Part shown: one piece after another, positions 1 to 26,625 of the stretch
How positions within the stretch are numbered: position 1 is the first letter of the stretch
Layout: the number at the start of each line of letters is the position of its first letter
From: a virus
Direction: 5' to 3' (one strand)
IMG/VR virus record: IMGVR_UViG_3300032038_000557
Location: 1-26,625 of that record
DNA length: 26,625 bases
The notes under the pieces: generated by a model
What the model was told of the DNA's origin: nothing
Seen by the model: only the letters and a program-made list of their open reading frames with translations
The model's database searches: none
Program-made: the position numbers and the translations under genes

Positions 1-247
1 CTCCGAATTTAGCAAGATGAAACATCTGCTTAGATTGAGTCTGTGCTTGTGCTCTAATCGTTTCATTTATTTTAGCATACTGTTTCTGTACAGCAGTTAA
101 TTCTTGCAATTTAGCTTGAAACTCAGCAGTACCAGTTACGGTACTGTTGAGTTCTGCTTTTAATCTCTTAATATCATTTTTTAAATCATTGATAGATTTA
201 CCAGAGTTCTTGGTATCTATCTTAATTATTCTAACTATTTCTTCCAC
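1..247 (-). CDS. N-terminal part of the tape-measure-like protein (partial, runs off the left edge)
   Basis: GTG start at 245-247, 2 nt after the TAG of the upstream gene. The frame is open to position 1 with no stop of any kind. Coiled-coil N-terminus: VEEIVRIIKIDTKNSGKSINDLKNDIKRLKAEL. It is phase-compatible with the ORF open at the right edge. Confidence 0.6.
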   Translation of the reverse strand, partial: MEEIVRIIKIDTKNSGKSINDLKNDIKRLKAELNSTVTGTAEFQAKLQELTAVQKQYAKINETIRAQAQTQSKQMFHLAKFG

Positions 248-249
248 AG

Positions 250-3102
250 CTAATAACTAATTTGTCCGTTTACGTAATTGTTAGTGTCTTGTACTTTGAT
301 AAATTCACATCTAGTAGTACCAAAATCATTCACATCATAACTATCCACTTTATTTAAAATCCAGATAGCATTATTGAATCAATAGAACTTCCTCAAGTAA
401 TCTTGATTCATCTTATCAAACTTCACATAACAAGTAACTTTCTTGGTATCTATGTTGAATTGATCATTATAGAACATCTTCCAGAATCTATCATAGATGG
501 TCTTTTCTGGAGAATAGTTTATGTTACCGCAGTAAACCTCTTTTGGCATTCCAAAATCTAAACTCTCAGAAACATTCTTATAATCATCTATTATTAAATT
601 TAAATATTGTGGAAGGGTGTTACGTCTATAAGCTATTCTATTTCCACTAACATCATATTCACTTACAGTATAGATGAAGCAAGGTTCTTTGTCATTCAAA
701 GTATTCATTATCCCTAAATCATCAGTAATGTTAAAGTAAACGTCCCTACCAGTATAATCTTTACAGTCTTTTAAGCCGTTTCACATAAGTAAGCAAGAAG
801 ATATCTCTTCTAAAGAGCGATCACCATTATCTAAAGTGAAGAAACAGCTCTTTGGGAATATATCAGCACCAGCTATTACACTCCAATCAATAGTTCTTCT
901 TCTATCGACTATATTAGCTCCATATAAATCAATAGAAATGGTCTTATCACCATTATAAAGATCACAACTAACATTATCACACACAAAGCAAGGAACTTCA
1001 GCATTATTGGTGTTGAAATACGTTCTATAATACTTATCACTATCCAAAGCAGGAATAATCCCTTGATAGAGATTGTCTTCGTAGAAGTTAGTATTATCAG
1101 AAGTAAAGTTATATCCAGTGTAGATTCTTTTCTGTCCATAAGTTTGCGAATACTCACTATTGTATCTTTCAGCGAATCTAGTAGCTGGAGTATCTAAAGC
1201 AAGTGTATAATACTTCTTATCGAATAAGATTGGAGTAACAGTCATATCCTTATCATAATCGATCAACTTATCAATATTCACCGTCTCTCCAGTAAAGAAA
1301 CTATTTCTGGTAAGGATAGTTATCTTCTTCTCAAATACATCTTTTATAAAGTAAAGTCCAAACAGCTTTGCATAATCAAGTAAATAATCAGCAGGACTAC
1401 TTTCTGTCTTTAGAAGATTCCTTTTAGTGATAGTTCTATTTGAACTTACTCCATCATCGATTGAAATGGAGAACTTACCATTAGTTGTAACTACATTCAC
1501 TCAGTATCTATAATCTTCAGAAGAATTTGGATTAATAATATGAGAAAGAATGTATCTTCTTGTACCAGACTGTTGAACAATCTTAATCTCTGTATGTAGA
1601 ACAAGCTTAACTCTATGTGCTATAGGACATTCCGTTAATCTGATAGAGAAGGTATTGTCTTCATTATCAGCTTTGAAGTAATATCTACTGCCATCCTTAT
1701 AGAATCTTCCAAATACGATAGAAGTAGCAGGAACATTGCTATTAGCGATATAAGGAGCATTATTGTATATGAATCTATGATCTTGTAACTGATAACCATT
1801 TGAATAACCTAATACAGTATTAGTATCAGCATCTTCTGCAGTTAAGTAAACAGTAATGAACTGATTTGAATTGGTTAAGTTGCTTCCAGTGGCATTATAC
1901 ATCTGCAACATATCATAGACATTGCTATCCAGTGTTTGAGCAAACACTTGAAAATCAAATGATAAATCCATCGTAGAAGTAATAGAACTCTCTGGAAATG
2001 TAATAATGCCAGCAGAACTAACCGATTCACTAATTCCACTAACAAGTACATTAGAACTAGCAGATGGTTTCTGAATGACTCCTTTATCACCAGCTCAGTT
2101 AGTAGATTCATTTAATATGCTAACAGAAGTAGCTTCCTCAACCTCCGTATCATAATCATTTGAAGTAAGTAGAGGTAAAGCAACAAAAGTCTTCTCCCAA
2201 TAAGGATTGTTCTTATTAAAGAAAGTTGGATCTAAATCTACTTGATAACCACTATTCTCTTCTTTACAGATTGTTTCAATAAGTTTCTTCAATCTGATTG
2301 CTGGTCTCTGATAATAGCTTCTTAGATCTTTCATTTCCCACTCTGTATAATCCTTCTCAAGATTAGCCAATGAGAATCCATCAATCGTTGAATACGTAAC
2401 TTCAACGTTATCTTCTATCTCCGTTTGCTCTTTCGGAAAGATTATATCATTATTCGTATTGATAATACAGTGAGAAGTATCAAAATCTTCATAAGTACCA
2501 TTGTAAGCTGGTATAAATGCCAGATAATCAAGCAGTTGATCTCCATCAACAGTTCAATCTTTACTAAATGATTGATTTACAAGATCTTTGTTGATTCTAA
2601 AGTTAAATTCAGTATTCTCTGGAAGATAGTTACCATATTCATCTTTAATGAAATACCTTAAATCAGCTAGTGTCCTCTCAGTACCATCCTCATTATACTT
2701 CAATCCATAGAAGAAATCTCCTAAACCGCCATAAAGAGTAATGTTATAAGTTATATCACCATTCTGAATAGATATGTCATTTAGTTGCATATAGCCAGTT
2801 TCAACCAAATCTCCATTATTATAAATTGAGAAGTCAACCCTCTTAGAAGGATCGAAGTTCATTCCATTAAGTTCTGATCAACCAGTCCACTCTTCATAGT
2901 GTTGCATTCTATCTAACTTATAGATTTCTCCAAAGAGTTTATTGTTGTTCTTCGTTCCCTTTATACTGATTGTCTTTGAGAAACTGTTCTTAACTATTGT
3001 AGGATTGGAGAAATCCTCGGTTTGATAAGTAATCGGTAAACCGAGGGTTTCTTCACAATCTACTAACTTATTAGCTATAAATAATTTAACGTTATCTTTC
3101 AT
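250..3102 (-). CDS. Large tail or baseplate-associated virion protein, 950 aa, function not assignable
   Basis: Track fragments 379-708, 781-1500, 1501-1971, 2095-2370, 2554-2862 and 2878-3102 share one frame. I translated every gap and found only TGA, at 379, 781, 1501, 2095, 2554 and 2878. ATG 3100-3102 overlaps the TAA of the upstream gene by 1 nt. The true stop is TAG at 250-252. Confidence 0.8.
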
Positions 3103-6100
3103 TATTTCCTAAACTTTAGATGTGATTCCTCTACATTTATTTCATAAGAAACTGGATTCTTTCCGTTATTACTATAATTCAAGTAACTGACAGAAGTATC
3201 TGTTACTATTACTGGAATTATCTCATCAGTAGCCAGTATATGCAAATAAACTAAAGGAGACTCTATCAAATGATACATCTTTTCTCCATTTACGAAGTAA
3301 TCTGTATGAAGATTCCAAGTAGGAGTAATCCTATTCATATACTTTGTCTTACTGAAATCAGTTCTAGGAGCTTTCTTTCTATAATTAAATGATTCTATAT
3401 CATCTCTCTTAGTAGTATTTCCTTTAACAAGTAAGGCATCCCATCCACCATAAGCATTACAGTAATAGAGAACGTATTCTCCGCATTCATTGGCTATGTA
3501 ATAAGTAAGTGGATAATCTCCATTACCATATCCTCTTCTTGCACTACAATCAACATTCAAAGTGGAACCTACTGAGAATGAAGACGCTTTCAACATTAAA
3601 GTAGAACCACTGTTTGCTGCCACTGGAGAATATCTTTCATTACCAACAGCAAGATTGTCAGTACCTAATGATAATCAGCTAATTGGAATTCACTGTCTCC
3701 AATCTACTGTAGTACTTATTGGATCACTAAGAATCTGATGAGAAGGAATCTCTTTATATGCTCAAGAATTATAGAAACTAAAGTTAGTTTCCGTTCCAGT
3801 ATTCGTAACAAACTTAAATTGTTTATAGTAATCTGGCATTTCTTGAACTCCAGCAGTAAACGTTATCCCATTACCAAGATAGTTTTCACAAACATCATTT
3901 AAGATGACAGATGTAGCTCTAGTAGTAGGTTCTGGATAAGCCTTAGCAGCATATAGAATCGTATTTCCACTATTTATATGATATTCAACAAATGCAGAAT
4001 TAGAAGGAGCTTCTACAGCCACTCCAACTTCTTTTCAGATTGGTCCACCAGCAATTGAGAGTGATTGTCCTTGAATCAACGTAATAGTTCCAGTATAAGG
4101 TACTGTTGTTTGTACAAATCAAGTAAGAGTATAATACAACAGACTCTCACTACTATTTGCTTTTACTCTAACTGTAGCAACATTCCCATTATAAGTAATA
4201 CTGTTTACTTGTGAAGATGGTGAAACAGTAACATTCCAAGCAGTTATTGTCTGATGTGAACTAACTGTAGCAGTAAACGTATCTCCAGAAGCATTAAGAG
4301 TTGATTTACTTAATGTGATAGCAGGAGTGTTTTCCTCTTCAGTAGAAGAAGTTTGAGTAACTATAGCAGTATAGTTTCTACCACTTTGTGTTCCAGTAAC
4401 AGTCCAAGTTCTTGCTGAAGAACCAGTATTTGCATCAGCATAGTAAATGATAATCATTTTACCATCTCCAGCTCTAGTCACACTTGTTATATGAATTCAA
4501 GATGGAGCGTTATTTGAATACGTTCAAGCAGCTGTAGAAGTAGATTCCCAAGTAATACTCTTTGTAGTTGTATCCGTAGATGATAAAACTGTTTGAGTTG
4601 GAGAAACAGTTACTGTAACTTCAGATGAAGCAGCTTGAGTAATCGTAACTGTAACTGGTTGAGCATCAGTAGCACTAACAACAAATGATGTATTCCTTGC
4701 ACTAGAAGTAGCATTAGTTGCTGCAGAATAATTGATTGTTAAAGAACCAGCTACAGTAGAAGATCTACTAACTTGAGTAAATCAAGCTGCTGTTCCAGTA
4801 TAATCAACACTCCAAGAACCAGTTCCAGCAGGATTTAGAACTGTAATCGTATAAACACTACCAGATGAATTTGCTGGTATCGTAGTATCTCCAGAATACG
4901 TCAATACATTAGCACTTAACGAAACAGTAAAACTGGTATTATCAGTTAATACATTACTACCTGAATTGGAAAGGTATCCACTTTGAGAAACACTATAATA
5001 GTAAGTACTACCTTCATCAGCTGAAACTGTTAAAGAACCATTACCATTAGCAGTATATTCAGAACCTCTTCTTGTGTATCTAATTGATATAGAAGCAGTT
5101 GATGGAACTGAATTGATAGTCAAATTATATAAAGTGTAACTTCTTTCAAGTTCTATAGTTCTACTAATGTTAGTATTGACTATACCAGATCCAGATTGAG
5201 TCACATAACCAGCAGCAGAAGCAGTTCAACTATATTGAGATCCTTCATCAGCAGCAACTAAGATAGTATCTCCATAAGTGACTGTATTCTCAACTCCTTC
5301 ATAAGTGTAAGTTAAAGTAATAGAACCAGTATTCGGAATCACTTGGAATGATAGAGAATACGTAACAATATCTAAAGACAACTCAATAGAAGCAGTTATA
5401 TCACCACTAACAGTACCACTACCATTCTTTGTTACATAACCACTCTTTGAAACAGACCAAGAATAAGGAGTTCCTTCATCTGCTGTTACTTGAACAGAAC
5501 CAGTTCCAGTAGCAGTTTGAGAAGTGCCATTATTCACATAAGTCAAAGTAATTGAAGCATCATTTGGAGTAGATGTTAAACTGATTGTATGAGTAGGAGT
5601 AGGTTCAACTTCCTCTTCAAGTTCAACAGATTCAGTAACATTCGTTCTAACAATCGTATTTGAACCAGATTGTGTAATATAACCAGTAGCATATGCTTGC
5701 CAATTAACAGTAGTATTCGGATCTACATAAACTACTATAGGAACTGTTCCAGTAAACGATCTAAGAGTTCCTTTTTGAGTATAATTGACAGTTGCTTCAG
5801 CAGTAGCTGGAAGAACATTTAAAGTAAAGCTAGGTAATATAGTTAATGAAATATGTCTAGTGGTATCTTGTGTAATCTGTTCAGAAACTCCAGTATTCGT
5901 TTCATAGTTATCAGAAGAAACATTCCAAGTAACTGTAGTACCACTATCCACATAAACAGATAAAGTATTAGCATTAACTGATTCAGAACTTGCTTCTCCA
6001 TAAACAGTGTAATTAAGTGATATAGAGACGTTAGAAGGAGAATCAACAACTAAAGTGAATGTTGGTTTAGAAGTTAAAGTCAAAGATACCGTTTGATCTT

Positions 6101-7088
6101 CTCTAATCACTAAAGTAGAAGTGGCAGTAGCATATCCATTTAAAGAAGCAGTAGCTGTTAATTCACTACCATAATCTACAGTAACTGTAACTGATCCAGT
6201 ACCAGTTTCTGTTTGTTCTACACTACCGTAAATGTAAGATACGTTAATTGTCGCATTAGATGGCGTTGAATTAATTGTAACAGTATTAGATAAAGGAGAA
6301 GGTATAAACGTTTCTGAACGATCTGAATCTGTCATTAAATAAACGTTGGAATCACTTTGATAACCAGTTCTTGAATAAGAAGCAGTAACATAAGTATTCT
6401 GATCAACATCTAAACTAGCAACATCAGTTCTAGTAACCTCTATAGAAGTTCCATTCCTAGTACCAGTTAGAGTAATTTCAAATCCAGTATCAGTAGAATC
6501 TTTAGCATAACGGAATGTCACATAAGGTACTAATTCAAAAGCAATTAAATCATCTCCATTAGCAACCCAAGTTCCACTTCTCGAAGTATATCCAACAGCA
6601 GATGCTCTCCAATTAACTGTTTCTCCAGCTACACTAGTTGTATAAATTCATTCAGAAGATTCAACACCATTAAAGTAAACTTTAATATCAGAAGCACCAG
6701 ATGGAGCTATTTGAAGTGTATAAGTAGTGGGAGTGTACTGACCTCAAGTAACTTCATCCTCGTCAATATTATCAACATCACACATAGCTCCAGTAGGAGT
6801 AATGCTATTAGTGTATCTGTTTTGGAAAGCATCATATATATAACAATCTTGAAGATTGATTGTCATAGGTTCTGTAGAGTAAGTGAATGTTAACTCTGCA
6901 TCCCTAGTATAGTCATAAGGACTACTGCTGACAATGTACATATTCTCTCCATCTGGAATAGCTTCGTAAATAAACAAATTCTTTAGAGTTACGATATCTC
7001 CAACTGTAGGAGGAGTAGTTCCCATTCCATTACTTGAGAACGATATTGTTAGGTTATTAGCACCACTTGATGAAAAATTAATAATCAT
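3102..7088 (-). CDS. Giant tail fiber or receptor-binding protein, 1328 aa, with tandem PEGA-like beta-sandwich repeats and two BACON-like domains
   Basis: Track fragments 3102-3623, 3762-4022, 4119-4481, 4782-5204, 5226-6521 and 6744-7088 are in one frame. All gaps translated: 11 in-frame TGA (3675, 3690, 3762, 4035, 4119, 4497, 4524, 4782, 5226, 6648, 6744) and no TAA or TAG. There are about 7 repeats of roughly 70 aa of the type SxPxxAxIxV...G.G...V....G......S..GY. BACON-like segments read W-IHITS...ANTGSSARTWTVTG...AIVTQ and W-FTQVS...ATNATSSARNTSFVVSA...TVTITQ. Stop is TAA at 3102-3104. Confidence 0.8.
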
Positions 7089-7876: not shown

Positions 7877-8299
7877 CATTACATCAGAATAAACATTCAT
7901 AGTTAAGTTTTCTCATAAGAAGTCAGCATTCTTTGATTCTCCATATTGCTCTCCATCTTTAATAAAGATACAATCAAGAATATTCTTTCAATCTTGTCTT
8001 TTCAGAAGTTCTTGAAAATCAATATATTGTGCAGTAGTAACCTTTTGTAAATCAAGAACTGGTCTAAACTTTTGATCTTTAACTAAATAGACAGATTTAG
8101 CTGGCTTCTCAGTATATTTCTTCTCAAGGAAGGATAGTTCATTTATATAGTAAGCTACTTTACTTACTGGAATGTCTCCCATCTCCACTCCTCAAATTGT
8201 CTTTATGAGTTGTTCTTGTGCTTCTAATGGATCTTCCGTATTAGCAAGTATATCAACAATCTCATAGTATTGTTTAATCGTTATATCATCTCACTTCAT
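7694..8299 (-). CDS. Hypothetical protein, 201 aa, candidate tail assembly chaperone-like
   Basis: ATG 8297-8299 overlaps the TerL TAA by 1 nt. Fragments 7694-7900 and 7988-8188 are in frame. In-frame TGA at 7913, 7988, 8192 and 8291. Stop is TAA at 7694-7696. Confidence 0.7.
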
Positions 8300-9507
8300 T
8301 ATATAATAGATATTTTATAGTTCCCTCTGTTGGTAAAGATAGAATCTCAACAAATAGCAGTAGCCATAACAGTATCATCTTTATAACCAGAAGGAGCATT
8401 ATAAGTTATTTTACCAGAACGAGTTGTTTCAGCAGAATACATTCTCAGTTCCTTTAATAGTTCATTATCTCTAACTAATTGAATATCACCATTTTCTAAA
8501 GCAACTCCCAATTTATCAATTATCTTGTTCTTAGTAGTATTAGATGTATTGAACTTTATGATACGTTGTTTAGTCTTCTTCTGCAACATATCAAAGTAAA
8601 CATTACCGATAGAATTGGATTCCACTGTAATCTTTATTGGATTGTACTGATTGATTAGATTGGCAATAACGTTTACTTGCTCTGTGGGAGTCTTATCATT
8701 AAAGTATTTGATAAAGACCATATGTCCAGTATGCGTAATACAACAAACGGCTGTATTATCTTGTCCATTACCAGATCCTCAGTCAATTCCAAAATATAGA
8801 TTTTCTGTAAGATCAGCTGGTTCACTTTCAATACAACCTTCAATATTCGTAAACAGAGAACCATCATCATTTAAGAATTGACCTAATATCTCAGTAGTGA
8901 ACTTCTTTCTTGAATAGGTTCTCTTATAAAATTCAATTTGTTCTTCACTAATCAATTCAGAACGATCATATAAAGATCAGTCAAAGCTTCTCTTCTTATC
9001 AGAATCTGGTTCCGAATAAGTAGTATAAAAGTATCCATCCGAAGTAAGTGGAGTGGAACAGATTAGGATGCTTGCTTTATGTACTGTAGTTGTTGGTAAA
9101 AGGATGTCTATTACATCTTGTGGAATAAAAGCACATTCATCTAATACAAGTATTCCAGAAACTGTATATCCTCTAAGTGCATCTTTTTGTTCTGCAGACT
9201 TAAAGAGTATTTCAGATTTGTTCTTAAACCTTATATGAAGTAAAGACTCATTTGCTTTCTCTATTATTCCAGAAGCATCTAATAACTTGACAAACTCATT
9301 AAACATCTTTCTAGATTGAGCTAGTGTTGGTTCAACTACTATAGAAGTAGTTTTAGGTAAAGAGCAAGCTTTCAGTAGTTCAGCTAGACAGAGAAAGGAT
9401 TTACCACTCTGTCTAGGACTGAGAACTACTGCAATCTTTCCTTTGATGTCAAATCAATCATAAACTTCCTTTTGCCATTCATAGAGTTTAGGAAATACTA
9501 TCTTCAT
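8299..9507 (-). CDS. terL: Terminase large subunit, 402 aa
   Basis: Walker A SPRQSGKS, Walker B ILVLDECAF, and nuclease motif FGID-W-GSGNG. Fragments 8347-8721 and 8977-9306 plus their gaps are in one frame, with TGA at 8347, 8779, 8977 and 9454 and no TAA or TAG. Start is ATG 9505-9507 and stop is TAA 8299-8301. Confidence 0.9.
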
Positions 9508-9923
9508 TACTGTTTAAATGTTATCTCAAACGTATCATCTGTTTTATCAGCTTTAACAGTAACTTCTTTATCTTTCTCTTTAGTTAATCCAAGAGCATCT
9601 AACATTTGTTTAAGTACAGAGATAGCTGACTTAATATCTTCTCCTTCAAGAGCTTTCTCCCAAAGAAGTTCATAACGATTCATAATGACTGCTCTTATGT
9701 GATTATTGAAATTATCTTGGTAATTAGTTAACTGTTCAAAAGCATCTTTGAAATCTTTACTTATTGTACCATCACAGACACCTCATTTCCTTCTGAGATC
9801 TTCTTCAATCTGCAATCTACTTTTTCCTTTTGACAGTTCTTTTAGGATGTACTGTTTTCTTATCATCTTGTCCATCGAGCTTCCTTTCGGTCTCACTTTG
9901 ACTGGACGTCCTCTCTTCGCCAT
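9507..9923 (-). CDS. Putative terminase small subunit, 138 aa
   Basis: ATG 9921-9923. Basic N-terminus MAKRGRPVKVRPKG, then a helix-turn-helix-like region. Its TAA overlaps the TerL ATG (TAATG). One in-frame TGA at 9783. The assignment rests mainly on position and size. Confidence 0.55.
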
Positions 9924-10173
9924 TAGTGTTTTCCTCCTTTAACGATTCTTTGTATTTGTAATAGAAAACTGATAGTCTTTTAAGTAAGTTAAGTACACAT
10001 TTACTGCAACTTCAGTTTGCTTTATAATCTTTTCCTATACAACGAGAATAAATAGTTCTCATTCTTTCTATATCTGTAGTACTAAGTGCTGCACAGTAAT
10101 TAGCTTGTGTAGCGGTGTAGAAATAATAATCAAATGCTTGTAAGTAAGCAAAGTCTTCTTCAGTAAGGTTCAT
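9817..10173 (-). CDS. Hypothetical protein, 118 aa
   Basis: ATG 10171-10173, TGA at 10012, stop TAG 9817-9819. The 3' 107 nt overlap the next gene, so the true C-terminus is uncertain. Confidence 0.5.
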
Positions 10174-10185: not shown

Positions 10186-10521
10186 TTAGTTAATAAGTAG
10201 TTTTTGTATCTTATTTAAAAGCCATATAAAGCCATCTTTAGCAATAATTAGTATCGTAGCTATCACTGGAGTCATAAACGCAAGGAAAGCCACATAACAT
10301 AGCATTAATCAAGAAAAAGTTCCAGTAATAAGAAGATAAAGGATTCCTCCTCATCAAGTGGAACATAAAGAACAACCGATTAAAGGAATCCTTCATCCGT
10401 TATATGGAATCTTTGGGAATAGTCTTTTTCAGACAAATTCAGATAAAGAGTAGATTCCACCAGATAAATCAATGCAAAAGACAATTATAATAGTAATGTA
10501 AAGTAAGGTTAAGAAGTGCAT
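10186..10521 (-). CDS. Small multi-pass membrane protein, 111 aa, DUF1360-like CxxCxxWW motif
   Basis: Hydrophobic segments LTLLYITIIIVFCI, ILYLLITGTFSWLMLCYVAFLAFMTPVIATILII. Five in-frame TGA (10309, 10351, 10354, 10393, 10429), including a tandem TGA-TGA. Only one TGG. Stop is TAA. Confidence 0.7.
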
Positions 10522-11167: not shown

Positions 11168-11314
11168 TTAGCTAAGTAGTTTAAGTTCATAATCTTTAAT
11201 TTCAAAAGGGAGTAAAGAGAGAAGATAATCATCTTCCACTGTAGTATTATCAGAAGTTACTATTACTCTATCTCCCAATTCTGTTTCTTCAATTCAGATA
11301 TCGAAGTTAATCAT
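11168..11314 (-). CDS. Hypothetical small acidic protein, 48 aa
   Basis: ATG 11312-11314 overlaps the end of the upstream gene. TGA at 11294. Stop is TAA at 11168-11170. Confidence 0.45.
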
Positions 11315-11705
11315 AGTCAAATCATTTAAAGGAGTTAAGATTAAGTTCCACTTTATCGGATCATTGTCATTCACCACCAAAATCAGTAGTCTGTCTAGCA
11401 TACATTGGAGTAACCTTCAAATAAGTAGAAGCAGGATCAGTAGTAACACATCATCTATCATTAAATAATATTATAAGTATTCCTTTATTTGAAATTAACT
11501 CTTTGAATTTATCTAAATTGACTATAGTAGTTGGATATTGATTGGAATCAAATCTCCTTCGTTTAAGTTCTATTTCGTATCTTTTGTCTTTCCAGATGAA
11601 TCAACCATCCATTCTGGAGAATTGATCTTCATATCAGTAGAGTTGAATTCCTCACTTATCTAAGAAGATCTGTTCAATTTGTTGTTTAGAAATTGTATCA
11701 GTCAT
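11307..11705 (-). CDS. First gene of the early operon, hypothetical protein, 132 aa
   Basis: ATG 11703-11705 lies about 20 nt downstream of a -7 promoter box. Seven in-frame TGA (11322, 11361, 11367, 11451, 11601, 11634, 11652) against one TGG. Stop is TAA at 11307-11309. No ORF is reported here in the standard-code track. Confidence 0.7.
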
Positions 11706-14489: not shown

Positions 14490-14976
14490 TCAATCTATTC
14501 ATTCAACCTCTTAAGAATACTCTTTGAGAAGGATTTCTCCTAACTATCTCATAAAAGAAATCTCTTCTTGCGTCTCATATCTTCTTAAATAAATCTTCTT
14601 GATTAGCCTCATTTAAGGCTCTTAAAGTGATTGGACCTATAATTCCATCAACTCTTACTTCAAGGAGCTTCTGTAGCCGTTTAATTGCTGTTATTGGACC
14701 ACTTCCTCAAGCTCAATCAACTAATATATTAGCTATCGATTGATTGACTATTCTATCTCCTTTCATCTTGTCCCAATAACCAATTTTAAAGATTAAATCT
14801 CATTGTCCATCAGTAATCCTTCTTAAATCCTCTACTGTCTTATCTAAACCAAAATACTTTCTAAAGACAGCAATAGTGATTCCCTTATTAGTAGCTCCCC
14901 CTTTATCTAATGGATGATTTGAGAATCCTCCTTCTCATTTAAGAATCTTCGGTTTTAGTTTCCTGTAATCCGCCAT
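14467..14976 (-). CDS. Endolysin: GH108-type N-acetylmuramidase with a PG_binding_3-like C-terminal domain, 169 aa
   Basis: No ORF is reported here in the standard-code track. Codon-by-codon translation gives [34 protein letters not shown]...GYWDKM...ILVD-W-A-W-GSGP...[10 protein letters not shown]...FLRG-W-MNRL. Six TGA (14503, 14575, 14707, 14713, 14800, 14935) against one TGG. Stop is TAG at 14467-14469. Confidence 0.85.
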
Positions 14977-16439: not shown

Positions 16440-17510
16440 TTAATTGTTAATTGAGTCATCTTCCCATTTGATAATGAATGGACTGATAATCAATGAATTA
16501 GCACCAATAATAGTATTAAATGCACTCTCTATTTCTTTCTGAATTGGAGAAATAACAGTCTTATTATATAACTTGAAAGCAGCTTCAAACTCTACTGCTG
16601 AGAATCCATTGTTCTCTGGATTTAATCCGAATAAGCAAGGATTTGCTCTAAAAGCAATAAAGATTTGCTCTCTAGACCTCTTAGAAAGAGTTTCATATTT
16701 CTTATCGAAATCATCACCATCTAATCTCTCTACAGTTACTCTATTGTCTTCTGAATCATTATAAGCGATTAAGATTCTTCCTGCATTCTGGAAACCACCA
16801 AACTTCTCATTTATTTGTCTTTCTATCTCTTCTTGCTGTTCTTCGTTTGGTTGCCCATTATTGAAAGAAATCACCACATTAGACATAAAGCCATTATTGA
16901 TGTTGTTTAGATGAAATTCATTGATACATTTCTCTATTTCACAAGGAATGACAGCAGCACCATATAAAGGAATAGGATACACACTTCTTGTAACATTCCC
17001 TTTACTGTAATATATGCTTCTAGGAGCAGGATGCTCTGGATCAAACTTTGGTATTTCAATATACTTTGCTCCCCAACTATTCCAATCATTTGAATAGTAG
17101 AACTCAGTATTCTTATCATTTGATCTCAATTTCATAAAATCAATATGATTCAATCACTTTACTCTACCATCTAAACTTCTAATGATTTCAATTGCAAATC
17201 CACCGAATATCAGTTTATCTATTAAGAGTTTCCTCAACAGAGTATTGATTGTATCTCCACTCTCATTCACTACACCAGAAGGAAAGTAAGTACACTGTGC
17301 ATCATCTCCACAAGCAAAATCAACAGTACCGTTGATGATAGATTGTAGAGTGGCTACACTATTATATAAATCCCAAAGATAGTTGGGATAAGTATTTGTC
17401 TTTCCTCAATAGATCGGTTTCTTTGTCCTTACTTTAATTTCATCTGGTGAAGGAATATTGTTCACTACTATAGGATCTATCGCACTTAATTGAACTGTCT
17501 TATTCTCCAT
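16440..17510 (-). CDS. Portal protein, 356 aa
   Basis: ATG 17508-17510. Fragment 16440-17153 extends upstream in frame through TGA at 17154 and 17406 (context PIY-W-GK) with no TAA or TAG. The portal-like core reads FGGFQNAGRILIAYNDSEDNRVTVERL...REQIFIAFRANPCLFG. Confidence 0.8.
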
Positions 17511-18286: not shown

Positions 18287-21085
18287 TTAAGCCGTCATAA
18301 TAGTCCATCTCTTTGCAGTAGCAATAGCAATTTCCTCTTCACTTAAGAGAGCATAAGATGTTGCATTAAGATATAACTGAGCATCAGTTACAGTAGTATC
18401 ATCTGGAGCTGCTAAACCGTTGATCACATTCATAATGGATTCTTTAGTTAATGCAGTGAGTTTAGTTAGGATGAGTCGATGATCAACACCTCCGCTTCCA
18501 ACAAACGCTTTACCAAGATTAGTGAAACCACCAAGAGTTGTTAAGCTATTATATTTTTGATTGCGAGAAGCACCAAACGGATTCGCTTTAGCTACAGAAG
18601 TACAATCCATCGCTCCAATAGAAGTATAGCTAAAGGAAGCATTTGAGTTATTTGAGCCAAACATACTGGTAATATCAAAAGCATTTGGGCTATTGAATGC
18701 AGGAAGGCTAGTTATTCCAGTACAATCATAGAACATATAATCCATACCCTCAACGTTACTATAATCAAATTGAGGAATTGCAGTAAGGTTGACACAACTC
18801 TGAAACATACTTGTCATCGTAGTTGCTTTACTTGTATTATACGCAGGAACTGTTGACAATAGAGCACAACCCTTAAACATATCTCTGAAGTCAGTTACAT
18901 TTGCTGTATTGAAAGTTGGTGCAGTCTGTAAAGTTGAACAGTTTTGGAACATTTGCATACAATTCTGAAGTGAATCAGTATTAGTCAACGTTACATTTTT
19001 AAGATTCTTACAACCATAGAACATTTGATAAGCTGATCCAACGTCACCACCGCCAGAAGCATTCGCTAAATCAACCGATGCTCTTCTCAAACTAATGCAT
19101 CCACCAAATAAAGAATAGGAGGTAGCCTCTGAGGAAGGATTTATAGTTCTAAACTGTAGATCTGGTGCATACACTAAATTAACACAACCTTGGAAGAATC
19201 CAACACTACTATTTATAGTTTCTGTTATATCAACCTTCGGAGCATATACCATAGCTGGTTTATAACTCCAATACGTTGAATCATCTTCTGGAGTATAATT
19301 CTCTAAAAGATTAGCAGTAATAGCAACATCACTATTTATACCAACACTCGCTACATCTTCGCAGGTCCAACCCATTGATTCCCAATCAACGCATCCACCA
19401 CCAGAAGAAGGAACGTTAACAGTTATTGAAACACCATCAAAGTAATCAAACTGTTCTCCTTGATAATCAGAAGGAGTATAAGTATATGTTCCATTCTCTG
19501 TGATGGTTTCCTCTACATAACCAGTATGAGGATCATCTCCACCTCCACATTCAGCTTGTCCTTGAGCATAACCAGCATCATATCCTGCTGTATAACCTTC
19601 ATCAGTACCTTCAACACCAAGAATAGTTACACCAGATAAGATATTCTCTGGCTGTATGTTAGCATCAATTGAAGCAGTTACACCAGCAATAGTAACTTGC
19701 GAAAGAGCATCATAACCTTGATCTGGAGTTATAATCTGTTGAGCAGTAGAAGGATCAGCTGTCTTTGCTTGTAAAGTGGTTACAGAAGTAGGAACATTAA
19801 CGGTTATGCTTGCCGATCCATAGAAGTCAGCATCACTTTGCGTAGGATCAAATTCATAAGTTCCATTAGCAGTAATAGTTTCCTTTAAGTCAATAGATGA
19901 TGGTTCTGGAACAGCAACTGTTATGGAAGCACTATCAAATCCATCATACTGACTACCTTGATAATCAGAAGGATCGAAATTATATGTTCCGTTTTCAGTA
20001 ATAGTTTCTTGTAAAGCGGCTGTTTCAAATGTAGGGCATTCTGATTGTCCTTGAGCATAACCTTCATCCCAACCTGCTTGATAACCAGCATTTGTACCAG
20101 AAACACCAAGAATACTAACTCCTTCAATGATATTCTCCGGCTGTATATTATCATCAATTCCAGCAGTAACTGAATTGACTGTTACTTTATTTAATCCATC
20201 ATAATCATCATCAGCGGTAACTTCTATTGGAATTGTATTAGGAATGACTGTCTTACTTTGAAGTCTAGGTTCAATATCAACTTCCACTTGATTCCAACCA
20301 TCTTCTCTTGTAAAGACACCGTTCTCAGTAAAGGTAGTGGAAGTGAGTTTAGCTTTCTGTTCTGCAACACCAGCACTATGACCTTCATCATAGTAAGCAG
20401 AAGTATCTATGTTAGTAGTAATTTCAACACTTGATAAACCATCGTAGTTAGCATCTGGAGTAACAGCAGTAACTCCATTCTCTGTTATAGTAACAGTTTT
20501 CTCTTGAGTTGAGAAAGTAGGAATAGGGACATTAACAGATACATCTGAATAACCATCTTCTCTTGAATAATCACCATTAGCAGTTATATCAAGATGAGTA
20601 AGTTTAGCTTTCTGTTGTTCAGTACCAGCTCTATATCCTTCATTATAATATTTATCTGTATTAATATTGGTAGTAACGGATACACTAGATAAACCGTCAT
20701 AATTAGCATCTGGAGTTACTGCAGTCACTCCGTTTTCTGTAACAGTAATTGATTTCTCTTGAGTGGAGAAAGTGGGAATAGGAACATTCACATTAACTGA
20801 ATTGTAACCATCTTCTCTATCATACTGTCCATTAGCAGTAACTTCTAAAGAAGTAAGTTTTGCTTTTTGTTCCTCAATACCATCTTCTTTCCCTTCATTA
20901 TATAAAGCTTCATCACTAACTTCTACAGTGACTTTGCTATAACCGTCATAACCTTCCTCTGGAGTATAGACACCATTCTCAGTAGCAGTCAATTCAGTGA
21001 GAGTTGCTGAATTACCTTCGGTGTTCTGTCCAGCTCTTGTAGTAGTGTTAAGAGCGGTTTTTGGAGTTGTAAATTTAATTGCCAT
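18287..21085 (-). CDS. BspA-like / DUF285-type leucine-rich-repeat surface protein fused to tandem repeat modules, 932 aa; probable adhesin or receptor-binding protein
   Basis: The C-terminal third has repeats of the type NTxNVTxMxxMFxxCxxLxxxP (FQGCVNL, FGGCISL, FYGCKNL, FQNCSTL, FKGCALL, FQSCVNL, FYDCTGI). The N-terminal part has about 85-aa tandem repeats (QKAKLT...TENGV...DANYDGLSSV). There are 932 codons with 6 TGG and no TGA. Confidence 0.8.
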   Translation of the reverse strand: MAIKFTTPKTALNTTTRAGQNTEGNSATLTELTATENGVYTPEEGYDGYSKVTVEVSDEALYNEGKEDGIEEQKAKLTSLEVTANGQYDREDGYNSVNVNVPIPTFSTQEKSITVTENGVTAVTPDANYDGLSSVSVTTNINTDKYYNEGYRAGTEQQKAKLTHLDITANGDYSREDGYSDVSVNVPIPTFSTQEKTVTITENGVTAVTPDANYDGLSSVEITTNIDTSAYYDEGHSAGVAEQKAKLTSTTFTENGVFTREDGWNQVEVDIEPRLQSKTVIPNTIPIEVTADDDYDGLNKVTVNSVTAGIDDNIQPENIIEGVSILGVSGTNAGYQAGWDEGYAQGQSECPTFETAALQETITENGTYNFDPSDYQGSQYDGFDSASITVAVPEPSSIDLKETITANGTYEFDPTQSDADFYGSASITVNVPTSVTTLQAKTADPSTAQQIITPDQGYDALSQVTIAGVTASIDANIQPENILSGVTILGVEGTDEGYTAGYDAGYAQGQAECGGGDDPHTGYVEETITENGTYTYTPSDYQGEQFDYFDGVSITVNVPSSGGGCVDWESMGWTCEDVASVGINSDVAITANLLENYTPEDDSTYWSYKPAMVYAPKVDITETINSSVGFFQGCVNLVYAPDLQFRTINPSSEATSYSLFGGCISLRRASVDLANASGGGDVGSAYQMFYGCKNLKNVTLTNTDSLQNCMQMFQNCSTLQTAPTFNTANVTDFRDMFKGCALLSTVPAYNTSKATTMTSMFQSCVNLTAIPQFDYSNVEGMDYMFYDCTGITSLPAFNSPNAFDITSMFGSNNSNASFSYTSIGAMDCTSVAKANPFGASRNQKYNSLTTLGGFTNLGKAFVGSGGVDHRLILTKLTALTKESIMNVINGLAAPDDTTVTDAQLYLNATSYALLSEEEIAIATAKRWTIMTA

Positions 21086-21757: not shown

Positions 21758-22669
21758 TTAAACAGTTGCGAGAACAACCTCGTTAGGGAATGCAACCTGA
21801 ACACCGAAGTTGAATTCGATATCAAGACGGAATTCTCTATTATCTTGTGAGTACCAGAACTCAAACTTCTCTTGATCATCCTGCATATCACAGCCATAGA
21901 AGAAATTCTTCTCTAACTGACCAGCAACGATGGAATTGGTTCCATTAAGTCCGTTAACAGCAATAACCTTAACAGAAGTACCAGGAATGATAACCTCATC
22001 AACTGGAGTACCAGGATTGTAGTGATATAAGTTCTTCTCAACGAGAGCCTGCACAAAGAGACGGAATTTGTCTGCACCCATAACGATAGAGGAACCTTCA
22101 AGAACCTCAACGGGAATTGCATTGTAAACAGCAAGAACTGCATTGTAAACATCAGTAGCAGTGGTAAGAGTAACAGTAACCTTGTTAACACCAGTGGCTG
22201 CATTAAGGATCTTTAAGAGACCATCAACTTTATTGAGGTTTTCATCTGCACTGTCAGTATCACCCTGCCAAATAGCCTTCTCAACAGCAGCATTGACACT
22301 CTTGATGACTTCGTTGATGAAATTCTCCTCGAAAGGAAGAGTCTTCTGACCAGCAGCAACTCTAACAGCATACTGAGTTCAGTATTTGAGCATTTCCTTA
22401 TCACAGTAAGCCATATTGATCTTTATGTGACCAGTGTGAAGGATTCTCTGAGAAAGAGTCTGTGCACCACCTTCTTCCCAACCGCAAGTAAGTCCGTCAC
22501 CGAACTCAACTTCAGTAGAAAGAAGATTGAGAGCTGCGTCTAATTTAACGCCAGTCTGTAAATTGAAAAGACTAGCAGATTTTGATTTAATAACCGCTTG
22601 AGCGATAAGAGGGAGTCTATGCTGCTCAATGTACGCAGTCATAGAACTAAAAATAGGGTTTGTAGCCAT
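21758..22669 (-). CDS. Major capsid protein, 303 aa
   Basis: Fragments 21758-22081 and 22379-22669 are in frame. I translated 22082-22378 and it is open. The single TGA is at 22379 (context MLKY-W-TQYAV). It lies directly after the protease and scaffold genes. Stop is TAA. Confidence 0.8.
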
Positions 22670-22697
22670 AGTTTAAATAAGTTGTTTTATTAATTAA

Positions 22698-23251: not shown

Positions 23252-23836
23252 TTACTTTAAATGTTTAATTTGATTGTATATCATTTCAGCTTCTTTCCGT
23301 TCATCTTCAGATAATGCAGTGGCATTAGTTGGAGAAAGAACAGCTTCAATACTGAAACCTTTATAGTCATTTGTAATCTCATTAAAGAGATCTTCACTGG
23401 TTACTTTATATTCTATCATTAAGGAACCATCTGGAATATCTTCAAATCCTTCTATCTTCTCTATTTTAGAATTAGTAACTCATATAGAAATTGGATATAT
23501 CGTACCATCAGATATATCCTTTTGGTTGTGATTCGTATCTACATTAACCGCACTACCATCTCTAATCATCTTAGAAGCAAGATTCTCTATAGCATTCTTT
23601 GAGAAAGCTATATAGTATTCTTCTTTTCCATTTCTTCTGTATATTGGCTGATCTGGTATTAATAAAGCACCGTAAACAGTATGATTTGAATCATTCTTTA
23701 CCAGTTTGTATTCTTTAGAAAGAGTTATGAAATTCTTTTCTATTGCTGGTCTTTCAACTAATGAGATTCTGTTGATTCCTTCTTCATCATCATTAACGTC
23801 TAAATAGATCAGCGGTAAATCATTATATAGTTGCAT
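23252..23836 (-). CDS. XkdF-like prohead protease, 194 aa
   Basis: The N-terminus INRISLVERPAIEKNF resembles the XkdF-type protease family. Fragment 23480-23836 continues through TGA at 23480 to TAA at 23252-23254. Confidence 0.55.
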
Positions 23837-23900: not shown

Positions 23901-23905
23901 GACTA

Positions 23906-26625
23906 TTAGAAACTTGCATTTTCTTCAGTGACTCTTACTTTGTTTTGCTTTTTAGTTATGTCACTTTCAAGCACATAACACTTGATAGGATCATTTAACT
24001 TGTCAAGTTCTTTATCTCCTAAGAGTTCTCTGGAGTAAGTAATAGGAGCTTGAATCATACCAGCAGGAGCTTGTACAGAAGATCCACTAATAGAAGCACT
24101 CATAGAAGCACTTAAACCAAGTTCGGAACCAGCTTTAAGAATCTGTTTTACATTAGCAATACCAGAAGCAATTGCAGCAGCTGCAGCAGCAATACCCAAA
24201 GCAGGACCAACATAAGGAATACCAGACATAGCTGCATAAGCAGAGTTAGCTGCCTTATAAGTATCAATAGTTGCTTGTGCAACGGCAAATCCTTTACCAA
24301 CAGCAGTTTCTTCACCAACAAGAACAGACATAGCTCCCATAACTTCAGAAGCTACATCAAAAGTAGCATTCATAGCTTCTTGTCTCTTTTGCTGAACAGA
24401 TTGGAAAGCAGCTAAGTTATCTTCTGCATTCTTTTGTTCAGCATCTTGTAGAGCAATCGTATTTTCAGCAAGAGTTCTCTGAATCTCCATTCTTGCATCA
24501 GCATCAGTAGTTTCTAAATCTAGCTGTTGCTTTAAAAGATCATTCTCTTGCAGTATTCTTGTTCGAGTAAGTTCAAGAATCTTATTATTATACTCTATCT
24601 GCTTCTCATACTCAGTATTAACATCGTCTCTGGATTGATAGACATTTAAGAATGTTCCTCTAGTTCCTTGATCTCTATATTTACCAACTTCATTTGGATT
24701 GTTATTTAATCCAAGTAAATTGCTAAATCCTTGAGTATAAGTAGTTTGGAATGTTTGCTGTCTAGGATCTCTTAGATTAGAAGTAGCATATAAAGCTCTA
24801 ATGTTCTTTATATGGTCTTTGATTCTATCTATTTCATCCTTTCTTTCTTTATCTTCCTTATCATTACCTAACTTTTCGTATTTGTCATCTAAATCAGCAA
24901 TAGCTTTCTGTTTAGCTTCTTCCAGCTCTACAGTATCATAGCCATATTTCTTAGCTAATTCAATTAAACGATCATAGTAAGCAGCAGTATCTCTATATTC
25001 CTTTACTTCTTCATCAAGTCTTGAATCTCTTATTTGCTCAAGACCAGCTTTCAGTTCTTTGAGTTCTGCTTCTGTTTGATCTTTAACTGGATTATTATTG
25101 TCATTATTACCGCCATCTGGACTACGATGACCAAATACATCTCAGTATCTCTGCCAGAATGTATCAGATTCTGTATATAGTTTCTTTAATCGTTCATTGA
25201 TATCTGTAGTTAACTGATCAAGATCTTTCTTTATCTTATTTGCTTGTGCTTCTCTTGCTTGATCAGCAACTGCTTGCTGTGCTTCAAGATCTCGTTGATC
25301 AACTCAACCACCACCATATAACACATAAGCAGAAGATGTTTGGTCTCTTTGTGTTAATTCTACATTAGCAAGCTTATCTTCGAGTTCTAATCGTTTTGTC
25401 AAGTAATCCTCATAGAGTTTAGCAGCAGCATTCTCAGTAGCCAATGCTCTACCTCTATCCATAAGTGCCTTGATGTAAGTATCTGTATTCTTTACAAGAA
25501 GATCTTCTGCAGCATCTACATTATCAATACCTTCCTTAATGGAATCTAACTTATCTCGATAATCAAGTAAGAACTGTTCTTTGGCAGCTTCGTTTCCTAA
25601 AGTTCTGAAAGTCTTAGCTAACTGTTGTAAAGTGGATATGGTTCCAGCAACACTCTTTGCTGTTTGTTCCCTTATCTCTTTATTGAACTTAGCCATTTCC
25701 CTTCTTGCTTCAGAAGTTCTCTTAATAAGATCGACAAGTTTATAAGCTGCTGTTACTAAAGCAGTTATGAGTAAAGTCCAACCAACTGTTTTAATAACTT
25801 GTCAGAATGCACCTCAAGCTTTTGATAATCCATTAACTGATTTAGTAGTTGTTTGAGTGGCAGCAGAGACTGAATCAAGATCAGTCTTAATATCAGCTAG
25901 TATTTTACTATCATCACCAAGATTTTCTTCTAGATTATGCAGTCCAGTAGCTAATTGATCAAATGAAACATTCAGTTCTTTAGCTGTAGCTCTAAGAGCA
26001 TCTTCATCAAAGGTGAAATCCCTTAACAGTTTATGAAGTTTCTCTGGTTTACCAGCTAATAATAAACTAATTGCATCATTCAATTCACCAACATTCATCT
26101 TGGCTTGTGTAGTATGCTGATTGTATATGCTGATGATATCCGAAAGTTTGTTCATATCACCAGTATATCCAATCATAGCTTTTTGAGCAGCAATAAGTTC
26201 ATCATTATATGCTTGCCATTTTTCATTTAATGGAACTATTGTTCTCCCTTGTGCTTCAAGAGCATCTGTTTGTTGCTGAATTATCTGAGTATTATTTGTA
26301 ATGACAGTTCCTCCAGCAGCAGCAGATGCTTTACCAGCCACTCCACCACCAGCAGCATTAGGTAAGTTTACTTTGTTGACATCCATCAACCTATCAACAG
26401 ATTGATCTATCTGTTTAGCAATAGGATTGAAAATGTTCTTTAAACCAGAGAACATATCAATTAATTTCTTAGCTTCTGGAATCAAATCCTTGAATCCAGA
26501 TAATCCTTGAATTAATTGAATTGTCCTTGCTGTAGTAGCTAAAGCTTTATTTAAATCTTCATCATCTCTAGCAAGTAGATTGATTGCAGCATTAACAGCA
26601 CTATACGATTTAGCTAACGATTCTC
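23906..26625 (-). CDS. Tape-measure-like protein, C-terminal 906 codons (partial at the right edge; 988 aa if joined to 1-247)
   Basis: Fragments 23906-24490, 25304-25696 and 25814-26485 are in one frame. All gaps translated: TGA at 25142, 25304, 25802 and 25814, no TAA or TAG. It has long coiled coils, a TM-like segment W-GAF-W-QVIKTVGWTLLITALVTAAY and a Gly/Ala-rich block GPALGIAAAAAAIASGIANV. The frame is open to 26625. Confidence 0.7.

Follow-up and report, generated by a model that had tools for sequence, protein, structure and literature searches.

A small circular temperate phage genome in which TGA is very probably read as tryptophan and no tRNA gene is recognised

Stop codons given a second life as sense codons are no longer a novelty among phages. 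The closest described systems to the phage presented here are Garnet and Topaz (Borges et al. 2021/2022, bioRxiv 10.1101/2021.08.26.457843), small temperate phages that share much with it: circular genomes (24-34 kb), an integrase that is present and free of the recoded stop, integration by a tRNA gene (a Garnet prophage adjoins tRNA-Met in a Prevotella genome), nearly all non-integrase genes broken under the standard code, and a clade in which standard-code and recoded relatives are interleaved. Recoding that is non-uniform across modules was described for such phages in the same work, where the idea of "code as a lysogeny lock" was put forward for Garnet and Topaz. Agate, Jade, Sapphire and some crAss-like phages (Borges et al.; Yutin et al. 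2021, PMC7886860) likewise read TGA as Trp, have predicted standard-code hosts and come from gut and rumen samples.

In this paper, we describe one more recoded phage. IMGVR_UViG_3300032038_000557 is a small temperate tailed phage, and the window (the whole stretch of DNA analysed, 26,625 nt) holds its entire circular genome of 26,622 bp, with CTC at either end. The contig L024 is 100% identical to the window and runs unbroken over its ends, its length of 26,763 bp being the circle plus a 141-nt k-mer overlap, and a 987-aa gene stays open in frame over the junction. The GC content is 33.7%, the - strand holds 27 of the 28 solid genes, and intergenic DNA sums to about 1.4 kb, counting as coding a conserved gene (9817-10173) that fills a gap in our first gene call.

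Table 1. Features of the phage genome, in window coordinates.
Feature	Position	Strand	Remarks
Tape-measure-like gene, 5' part	1..247	-	GTG start; continues as 26625..23906
Tail protein	250..3102	-	950 aa; 6 TGA, 6 TGG
Tail or fibre protein	3102..7088	-	1328 aa; 11 TGA, 12 TGG; Head_fiber_dimeric, weak BACON-like repeats
Terminase large subunit (TerL)	8299..9507	-	402 aa; 4 TGA; Pfam Terminase_6N + Terminase_6C cross TGAs
Conserved CxxC protein	9817..10173	-	118 aa; one TGA, codon 54 (10012-10014)
Small membrane protein	10186..10521	-	5 TGA, including tandem TGA-TGA at 10351-10356
First gene of leftward early operon	11307..11705	-	132 aa; TGA is 7 of 8 Trp codons
TATATTTG box	11726-11733		by first gene of leftward early operon
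TTGCGACT repeats	11899-11906 and 12049-12056		flank attP core
attP core	11954..11981	+	equals 3' 28 nt of tRNA-Asp(GTC) gene
Tyrosine integrase	12098..13225	+	375 aa; 0 TGA, 0 TGG; Arm-DNA-bind_5, Phage_int_SAM_5, Phage_integrase
HTH / replication-initiator-like protein	13363..14058	-	231 aa; 2 TGA
Endolysin	14467..14976	-	169 aa; 6 TGA; GH108 + PG_binding_3
Portal protein	16440..17510	-	356 aa; 2 TGA
DUF285/LRR protein	18287..21085	-	932 aa; 85-aa tandem repeat; 0 TGA, 6 TGG
Probable major capsid protein	21758..22669	-	303 aa; one TGA, W column invariant in examined relatives
XkdF-type prohead protease	23252..23836	-	194 aa; 1 TGA
Tape-measure-like gene, 3' part	23906..26625	-	987 aa whole; 4 TGA

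The initial annotation had claimed that TGA is a sense codon for Trp and that the standard-code reading frames are an artefact, and coding density, W columns and strain comparison all bear this out. Genes were called greedily on the circularised sequence under four codes. Code 11 gives 54 genes with a median of 77 aa and 74% coding, and code 4 gives 29 genes (28-30 across models) with a median of 169 aa, a longest product of 1328 aa and 94% coding; the controls, in which TAG or TAA was made sense, reach 77% and 83%, with short genes in both. The count claimed at the outset, 64 TGAs in 20 of 30 genes with 25 TAA and 5 TAG stops, held in its total for the first code 4 call (64 TGAs) and needed adjusting in its genes (19 of 29) and stops (25 TAA, 4 TAG); our curated model has 28 solid genes, 19 of them with TGA, 63 TGA and 52 TGG codons, and 24 TAA and 4 TAG stops. 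None of its genes ends in TGA, and interruptions are, as had been said, always TGA and never TAA or TAG. We recovered the same sizes for TerL, portal, capsid-like and tail proteins (402, 356, 303, 1328 and 950 aa), the 1-nt gene junctions (positions 3102, 8299 and 9507), the tandem TGA pair in CSLCST-WW-GG, and the contexts GID-W-G, K-W-EGG, RG-W-MNR and PIY-W-GK. A BACON context fared less evenly: the match in g03 scores 19.6 bits, under the Pfam cut-off of 25, although the L002 orthologue is recorded without a mark of weakness.

What, then, does TGA encode? Almost certainly tryptophan (genetic code 4), in most genes, to judge from alignment columns and codon exchanges. Homology does not stop at the TGAs, since Pfam envelopes cross them in four proteins (including TerL 29-221 and 240-383, GH108 10-93, PG_binding_3 97-162 and portal 87-333), and the similarity of the 118-aa protein, including that to the standard-code relatives L152 and L011, runs beyond its TGA into a conserved CxxC motif. 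Nor are the residues in TGA columns random: W stands in 116, 118, 113, 116 and 119 of 120 homologues at five of the six endolysin positions (the sixth is variable), in 93 of 120 at two terminase columns, and in all six extracted relatives at the single capsid TGA. The standard code suffices to translate P0074, the one endolysin homologue checked. Across verified standard-code relatives, the residues opposite TGA are W in 22 of 65 cases, Y in 7, F in 4 and G in 2, summed BLOSUM62 scores rank W first (174, against 55 for Y and 12 for F), and TGG is the commonest codon. At the codon level, TGA pairs with TGA or TGG far more than with Y or F codons, and with these far more than with all others; exchange between TGA and TGG is frequent among relatives, and in a strain at 97% all 44 shared TGAs are retained and four TGG codons have become TGA. 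With TGA counted, Trp makes up 1.37% of codons; with TGG alone, 0.62%.

It had also been claimed that early, structural and lysis genes are recoded alike, and this proved true only in part. Replication, packaging, tail and lysis are indeed recoded, through the replication-initiator-like protein, the early-operon genes, the terminase, the tail proteins and the endolysin, but TGA use is uneven by module: the integrase has none and the head genes have few, with 5 TGA and 20 TGG codons in the head block g19-g28 against 57 and 32 in the rest of the genome (Fisher p = 1.8e-4). Within this block g19 adjoins DUF6712 and the portal gene. Two TGAs earlier assigned to the integrase both precede its true start codon, ATG 12098, and we call the gene TGA-free because the L003 integrase is homologous from the Met of that ATG onward; the integrases of L003 and L151 are TGA-free as well, and that of the TAG-recoded L153 has 0 TAG against 15 CAA/CAG. 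We tested for a +4 context bias at the TGAs and saw none, which is what one would expect if UGA termination does not compete at all, and which a natively code-4 cell would fit equally.

If UGA is to be read, something must read it, and we searched for that something without success. ARAGORN finds no tRNA gene in the whole genome, Rfam finds none at E <= 5 over the window or E <= 10 over 9900-14300, and relaxed ARAGORN settings return only noise, all of it within coding sequence. Only two stem-loops with a UCA loop lie in or beside intergenic DNA, both antisense to a coding gene; the sole tRNA-like piece is the 28-nt tRNA-Asp 3' end in attP. No phage protein matches release factor, synthetase, deaminase or tRNA-modifying families, and near-complete recoded relatives likewise have no tRNA.

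The host is likely to be a Bacteroidales bacterium, presumably of the gut, and probably one that uses the standard code; the former view comes from the att core, the integrase type, the scarcity of Shine-Dalgarno sequences and the promoter boxes. At least 119 metagenome contigs from gut and rumen carry a tRNA-Asp whose 3' end matches the attP core exactly, with Bacteroidota marker genes on those checked and a SusC/SusD pair on one, and among the matches listed, beyond which low-GC or recoded carriers may lie, the 72 stretches of at least 6 kb have a GC content of 45-60% and the majority terminate genes with TGA. An identical attP core is present in the standard-code relative L142, and the best cultured matches of the endolysin are Bacteroides and Phocaeicola phages. 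The integrase architecture is one that we take to be typical of Bacteroidota elements, a Shine-Dalgarno core precedes only 2 of 29 genes, and the TATATTTG boxes are confined to three regulatory intergenic regions. We know of no code-4 lineage in the Bacteroidales. A lysogen was looked for and none found; the host is read from an att core common to many Bacteroidales and not from a prophage junction. Counting against this host, the phage's GC of 34% is far under that of the tRNA-Asp contigs.

We think it likely that this is a code-4 temperate phage of standard-code Bacteroidales that integrates at tRNA-Asp and lacks a decoder of its own. On entering a standard-code cell, the phage could have only its integrase and a few TGA-free genes translated; such limits on early translation would favour integration into tRNA-Asp, and the lytic programme would run only while UGA is read as Trp. 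A phage without its own tRNA could not bring this about by that route, and the decoding capacity would therefore have to come from beyond the recognisable phage gene set. We infer that the arrangement would be a lysogeny lock in a TGA-recoded, tRNA-less phage. Against the lock reading stand the recoded first lytic genes, with which a standard-code cell would seem unable to start the lytic programme, and the observation that no feature of the genome accounts for the switch.

Could the TGAs be something else? As real stops—of a decaying prophage, an assembly artefact, programmed readthrough or selenocysteine sites—they would have nothing beyond their presence in frame to recommend them, and assemblies made independently from different runs contain identical TGAs, they stand in conserved W columns, TGA alone interrupts, merged proteins have the lengths of their standard-code homologues, and leaky readthrough is incompatible with 11 TGAs in one 1328-aa gene; we regard this reading as ruled out. 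Glycine (code 25) would imply a host among the Absconditabacteria or Gracilibacteria, low-GC lineages known from animal-associated samples, and coding density cannot separate code 25 from code 4. We rule it out with similar assurance, since Gly is rare in TGA columns (it lies outside the eight best-scoring residues, and is absent from the six commonest in every endolysin column across 120 homologues) and TGA swaps with TGG and not with GGN.

Harder to set aside is a host that is itself code 4 and that the phage mirrors, as Mycoplasma and Spiroplasma phages do theirs. No switch would be needed, the missing tRNA would be trivial, and the complete genome without a suppressor, the recoded early genes, the TGAs that never stop and have no context bias, the low GC across the recoded clade (28-34%) and the size and diversity of that clade would all fit. 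Yet we hold it to be quite improbable: the peptidoglycan-directed endolysins (GH108 + PG_binding_3 here, Peptidase_M15_3 in relatives) speak against a wall-less Mollicutes host, the att core and its companions indicate Bacteroidales, the longer tRNA-Asp stretches listed have a GC of 45-60% and mostly stop at TGA, an integrase that avoids TGA would be puzzling in a cell that can always read it, and the same phage family has TAG-recoded members, for which we know of no natively recoded bacterial host. UGA-to-Trp hosts occur in several phyla, but Bacteroidota is absent from the lists (PMC13462651; gTranslate preprint, a survey of several hundred thousand genomes). A cryptic decoder carried by the phage is also unlikely; it would be either a highly non-canonical suppressor tRNA or a small protein, free of TGA, that inactivates release factor 2 and leaves UGA to host tRNA-Trp(CCA). 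In its favour, suppressor tRNAs are found in just 35% of code-4 phages, and undetected ones are suspected (Borges et al., bioRxiv 10.1101/2021.08.26.457843); tRNA-Trp(CCA) variants can decode UGA (PMC13092985); several TGA-free genes have no assigned function (g11, g19, g22-g24, g26 and g28); and the head genes, whose expression is presumably high, use TGA less, as inefficient decoding predicts. Against a decoder stand the small intergenic space, which yields no tRNA-like match at permissive thresholds beyond the attP fragment, the missing protein families, and the candidates themselves: g11 has no homologue in the relatives compared, and g19 sits among head genes.

Recoding of TGA is itself a known phenomenon, to which this genome adds a member, and its relatives include TGA-recoded, TAG-recoded and standard-code phages (in one of the last, L147, TGA stops 4 of 23 genes). 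Phages of natively recoded bacteria (Mycoplasma/Spiroplasma, code 4; Absconditabacteria/Gracilibacteria, code 25; Liu et al. 2023, PMC10746230) also use TGA as sense in most genes and would likewise require no suppressor tRNA, but code 25 phages read it as Gly, and the present phage differs from the whole group in its peptidoglycan-directed endolysin domains and in an att site, integrase type and promoter/RBS style that indicate Bacteroidales. Agate, Jade, Sapphire and the crAss-like phages are much larger (clade means of about 150-210 kb), often carry tRNA(UCA), sometimes with TrpRS and RF1, in a standard-code "code-change" operon that has no counterpart here, and recode mostly late genes, whereas this phage recodes early ones. 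It joins, by description, the small temperate recoded phages of Borges et al., and it departs from Garnet and Topaz, whose two in-depth prophages are TAG-recoded (Gln), in reading TGA as Trp, in having a complete genome without a suppressor tRNA, in recoding its replication and early genes, and in keeping its head genes poor in TGA, the opposite of the structural and lysis enrichment reported.

Read under the standard code (code 11), the window gives 54 genes of median length 77 aa that cover 74% of it; read under code 4, in which TGA means Trp, it gives 29 genes of median length 169 aa (the longest of 1328 aa), and coding density rises to 94%, as the initial annotation had expected. Control readings with TAG or TAA as sense reached 77% and 83%, and their genes were short. 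A first count found 64 in-frame TGA codons in 19 of the 29 genes, with 25 stops of TAA and 4 of TAG. A curated model of 28 solid genes holds 63 TGA and 52 TGG, the TGAs being present in 19 genes; 24 of its genes end in TAA and 4 in TAG, none has an internal TAA or TAG, and none of the 28 ends in TGA, whereas 4 of 23 do in L147, a relative that uses the standard code. The initial annotation had held that TGA is Trp throughout, and we find the observation real and the reading supported, the phenomenon itself being already known. Its counts of TGAs and stops agree almost exactly with our first count; we also find the protein sizes and peptide contexts that it quoted, along with the tandem TGA-TGA (10351-10356) and the 1-nt TAATG junctions at positions 3102, 8299, and 9507. 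It went wrong on the integrase: the two TGAs assigned to that gene lie outside it, since homology to L003, a TGA-recoded relative, starts at Met-21 of the long ORF.

Which amino acid, then, does TGA encode? Homology might have ended at the TGAs, or their columns might have aligned to Gly, and neither is what we found. The Pfam domains of TerL, portal, and endolysin extend through the TGAs, and among 120 aligned endolysin homologues, W predominates at five of the six TGA columns (116, 118, 113, 116, and 119 sequences), the sixth being variable, with W in the closest relative. One sampled homologue, P0074, comes from contigs of 130-300 kb, where it occupies prophage-like regions, and it translates in the standard code; its W is TGG, at least there. 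When only relatives verified as standard-code are tallied (L008/9, L011, L142, L146, and L147/8), the residues facing window TGAs (n = 65) include W 22 times, Y 7, V 5, L 5, K 4, F 4, and G 2, with summed BLOSUM62 scores of 174 for W, 55 for Y, and 12 for F; control columns at TGG give the same picture. The capsid's only TGA faces W in six of six extracted relatives, and within the recoded clade, a window TGA faces mainly TGA or TGG. Between two strains at 97% identity, all 44 shared TGAs are kept, and the only changes among Trp codons are four from TGG to TGA. Trp makes up 1.37% of codons if TGA is counted and 0.62% if it is not. On this evidence, glycine (as in a code 25 host) is ruled out, with two cells of 65 and the top score going to W, and so is any reading of the TGAs as selenocysteine, as sites of leaky readthrough, or as signs of a decaying pseudogene.

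The window (26,625 bp, 33.7% GC) is a complete circular phage genome, a circle of 26,622 bp, the trinucleotide CTC occurring at both ends of the window. We say so because an ENA contig, L024, matches it at 100% identity, unbroken across both window ends; because the length of that contig, 26,763 bp, is 26,622 plus a 141-nt assembler overlap; and because a 987-aa tape-measure-like gene stays in frame through the junction. A second strain, L023, is a 26,634-bp contig at 97-98% identity. Only one solid gene, the tyrosine integrase, is on the plus strand; the rest are on the minus strand. In the early gene g12, TGA accounts for seven of eight Trp codons; a search for its homologues gave two matches only (X positions break the word index). 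The conserved CxxC gene resembles the standard-code relatives L152 and L011 past its TGA. It shares 107 nt with the start of g08 as annotated; unless that overlap is genuine, g08 begins at a later Met. The DUF285/LRR gene is the most divergent between the two strains (92% nucleotide identity vs 96-99.6% for others), is free of TGA in the window, and shows one TGG-to-TGA change in L023; its product may act in host range or in binding to surfaces.

Features of the phage genome, with window positions
Feature	Position	Strand	Remarks
Early/replication genes			g12, g10, g09 (membrane protein), g14 (HTH / replication-initiator-like)
Packaging genes			TerL and probable small subunit
Tail genes			1328-aa and 950-aa proteins, tape-measure-like protein
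Head genes			XkdF protease, scaffold-like protein, capsid-like g27, g26, 932-aa DUF285/LRR protein, portal
Lysis gene			endolysin, GH108 + PG_binding_3
Short ORF, 47 aa	7526-7669	+	omitted from curated gene model; probably not a gene
Conserved CxxC gene, 118 aa	9817-10173	-	skipped by greedy caller
TATATTTG box	11894		at attP
TTGCGACT repeats	11899 and 12049		either side of attP core
attP core	11954-11981		upstream of integrase; exact copy of last 28 nt of tRNA-Asp(GTC) gene
Sequences predicted to join at attL/attR			core GTCGAGGGTTCGAGTCCCTTCCGCACCG; tRNA-Asp(GTC) 5' part ending ...GCCGGCCTGTCACGCCGGAG; phage arm CAGAATAACTGAAAAGG
Short ORF, 45 aa, TTG start	14093-14230	-	omitted from curated gene model; probably not a gene
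DUF285/LRR protein, 932 aa	18287-21085	-	255-nt tandem repeat at 20427-20902

Recoding is uneven along the genome. The head block (g19-g28, 15397-23246) has 5 TGA and 20 TGG, against 57 and 32 elsewhere (p = 1.8e-4), and g25-g28 have a GC of 0.37-0.41, against about 0.32 elsewhere. One possible cause of the shortage is that a codon decoded inefficiently is selected against where expression is high; another is recent exchange with standard-code relatives. The base after TGA shows no bias among window TGAs, and the idea that a TGA near the C-terminus of g20 is an ancestral stop found no support in the alignment.

The integrase (375 aa, Arm-DNA-bind_5 + Phage_int_SAM_5) contains neither TGA nor TGG. 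The recoded stop is absent from the integrases of other recoded relatives too; that of L153, which is TAG-recoded, has no TAG vs 15 CAA/CAG. The attP region spans 11894-12060, with a hairpin and T-run after the core, and TTGCGACT occurs twice in the whole genome where 0.29 copies are expected. Five relatives (L003, L142, L147, L151, and L154) have the same attP layout, some with other tRNA-like 3' ends. No integrated state was observed: a GTDB TerL scan, an integrase look-up, and an IMG/VR search with core and arm gave no lysogen junction. The TerL alignment brought up no close prophage in GTDB genomes, only a 29.8-kb rumen MAG contig at 40% identity and distant matches; the exact-protein look-up of the integrase, meant for lysogens called under code 11, returned no record; and attP core plus phage arm had no match in IMG/VR.

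This phage belongs to a large family. Searches with TerL, capsid, and integrase found relatives in gut and rumen data, with hundreds of contigs for TerL and capsid, although a scan of IMG/VR with the single TerL protein had matched nothing and the many relatives there came from alignment-based scans. TerL identity to cultured phages stays at or below 28%, and a megablast search with the window matched none of the phages in GenBank. (Our first fast code classifier called code 4 too often at high-GC loci, and its low-GC results alone were used.) The TGA-recoded relatives (L002-L007, L149-L151, and some forty capsid-centred loci) are syntenic contigs of 24-32 kb with a GC of 28-34%. Three IMG/VR members of the TerL family (L153, L159, and L166) are TAG-recoded, their coding density going from 0.63-0.80 to 0.87-0.94 under code 15, and many others keep the standard code (L008-L011, L142, L146-L148, L152, and L154-L158). 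A single phage family therefore covers codes 11, 15, and 4, a mixture likewise reported for four clades by Borges et al. (bioRxiv 10.1101/2021.08.26.457843). In a neighbor-joining tree of TerL, drawn without support values, the three codes interleave, which would imply at least two origins each for TGA and TAG recoding. Of the IMG/VR contigs that exceed the phage in length, two (30.5 and 32.4 kb) are all phage in their fetched parts, and one of 65 kb is phage-like over the 21 kb fetched. In a further one, of 148,631 bp (L238, IMGVR_UViG_3300045988_175865; part read, 132,566-148,631), a TGA-recoded relative occupies the end; this contig is either a lysogen, in which case it would reveal the host, or a concatemer.

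What remains of interest is where the decoding of UGA comes from. The phage might carry an undetected decoder or release-factor antagonist of its own. A suppressor tRNA(UCA) is common among code-4 phages without being universal (35% of the code-4 genomes in Borges et al., bioRxiv 10.1101/2021.08.26.457843). ARAGORN found no tRNA in this genome and, when relaxed, only noise within genes; Rfam gave none at E <= 5 over the whole window or E <= 10 over the regulatory third. Two UCA-loop hairpins at 9924-10185, in or beside intergenic DNA, proved antisense to the conserved CxxC gene, so that by all of these checks tRNA(UCA) is absent. Nor is a tRNA hidden in the stretch of 82 nt that runs from the TATATTTG box to the tRNA-like 3' end: it forms no cloverleaf, and its last 28 nt alone align with the host tRNA-Asp. 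A match to the Bacteroidetes sRNA FopS at 14147-14204 on the minus strand is weak (24 bits against a cut-off of 56, E = 1.8) and is probably a mere terminator hairpin. No protein in the window resembles a release factor, synthetase, or tRNA-modifying enzyme. The fetched stretches of relatives, which include two nearly complete recoded genomes (28.7 and 31.3 kb), have no suppressor tRNA either: the only tRNA in the TGA-recoded L007 is a complete tRNA-Ser(GCT) at 6154-6241, behind a TATATTTG box, and L006, whose TerL is identical, has no tRNA by ARAGORN. We consider a phage-borne decoder or antagonist unlikely.

A natively code-4 host would read the TGAs itself, and we think this a shade more improbable still. 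Bacteria that read UGA as Trp do exist (Mycoplasmatales, several endosymbionts, two Eggerthellaceae genera, and some Patescibacteriota), and no Bacteroidota stand in the lists of them (PMC13462651). What we can read of the host in the sequence points, indirectly, to Bacteroidales. At least 119 metagenome contigs have the 28-nt core as part of a tRNA-Asp; in the 72 tRNA-Asp stretches of 6 kb or more that were fetched, GC is 45-60% and TGA is a stop in most, and one such contig has a SusC/SusD pair. The standard-code relative L142 (GC 46%) has the identical core. The integrase architecture (Arm-DNA-bind_5 + Phage_int_SAM_5) is in line with this host. Only 2 of 29 genes have a Shine-Dalgarno core, and the Bacteroidota -7 box, as TATATTTG, has three exact copies, all in regulatory intergenic regions. 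Over the whole window, TAnnTTTG is under-represented (18 matches vs 31.8 +/- 5.1 expected). The endolysin's best cultured matches, phages of Bacteroides and Phocaeicola, point the same way. They also speak against a wall-less code-4 Mollicute, as do the GH108 and PG_binding_3 domains, since a phage of such a host would need no lysis enzyme directed at peptidoglycan.

The mechanism that we think most likely is as follows. Of the phage's genes, a Bacteroidales cell with the standard code could translate no more than the integrase and a few small or head-module genes; such limited translation would bias the phage toward integration into tRNA-Asp, and lytic growth would require a UGA-to-Trp decoding that is not visibly phage-encoded. 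Beyond this we put forward, tentatively and as something more likely to prove wrong than right, that the phage and its TGA-recoded relatives (as far as their stretches were fetched) cannot decode their own genes and that their lytic programme relies on UGA-to-Trp decoding supplied in trans. The source could be a co-infecting or resident recoded phage with tRNA(UCA), which would make this phage a fully equipped "genetic-code hitchhiker," or it could be independent of tRNA, for example if release factor 2 were blocked and the host tRNA-Trp then read UGA. A less likely variant makes the host the first code-4 lineage within Bacteroidota. Should the decoding turn out to come from another phage or from interference with a release factor, phages would be shown to have a novel kind of dependency or regulation.

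Standard-code annotation, meanwhile, wrecks this genome and with it a large and abundant family of gut and rumen phages. The phage offers a clean, complete, and small test case for a question left over from surveys of recoded phages, the reading of a recoded stop with no detectable suppressor tRNA, and the case is sharp in that recoding reaches the early genes but spares the integrase, and that sister lineages are TAG-recoded or standard-code. What is noteworthy here is that a demonstrably complete genome has no tRNA and that TGA is depleted in the head genes. Recoding of stop codons in uncultivated phages was reportedly described by Ivanova in 2014, as the initial annotation had it.

How does this phage compare with known systems? 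Both TGA-to-Trp recoding in uncultivated phages (Yutin 2021, PMC7886860; Borges, bioRxiv 10.1101/2021.08.26.457843) and small temperate recoded phages with clean integrases (the latter paper) are established. A circle of 26,622 bp and an integrase with no TGA fall within the Garnet-like description (about 24-34 kb and an integrase without the recoded stop). Another Garnet-like trait, integration beside a tRNA gene of a Bacteroidetes host, may apply here as well, for attP bears the 3' end of tRNA-Asp, though no integrated state was observed; possibly, the phage belongs to the Garnet clade or to a sister clade. It differs from the two prophages described by Borges et al. in that its recoded stop is TGA and theirs is TAG. 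It fits the lysogeny lock that those authors suggested for Garnet and Topaz, but the difficulty here would be greater, for the early genes are recoded as well.
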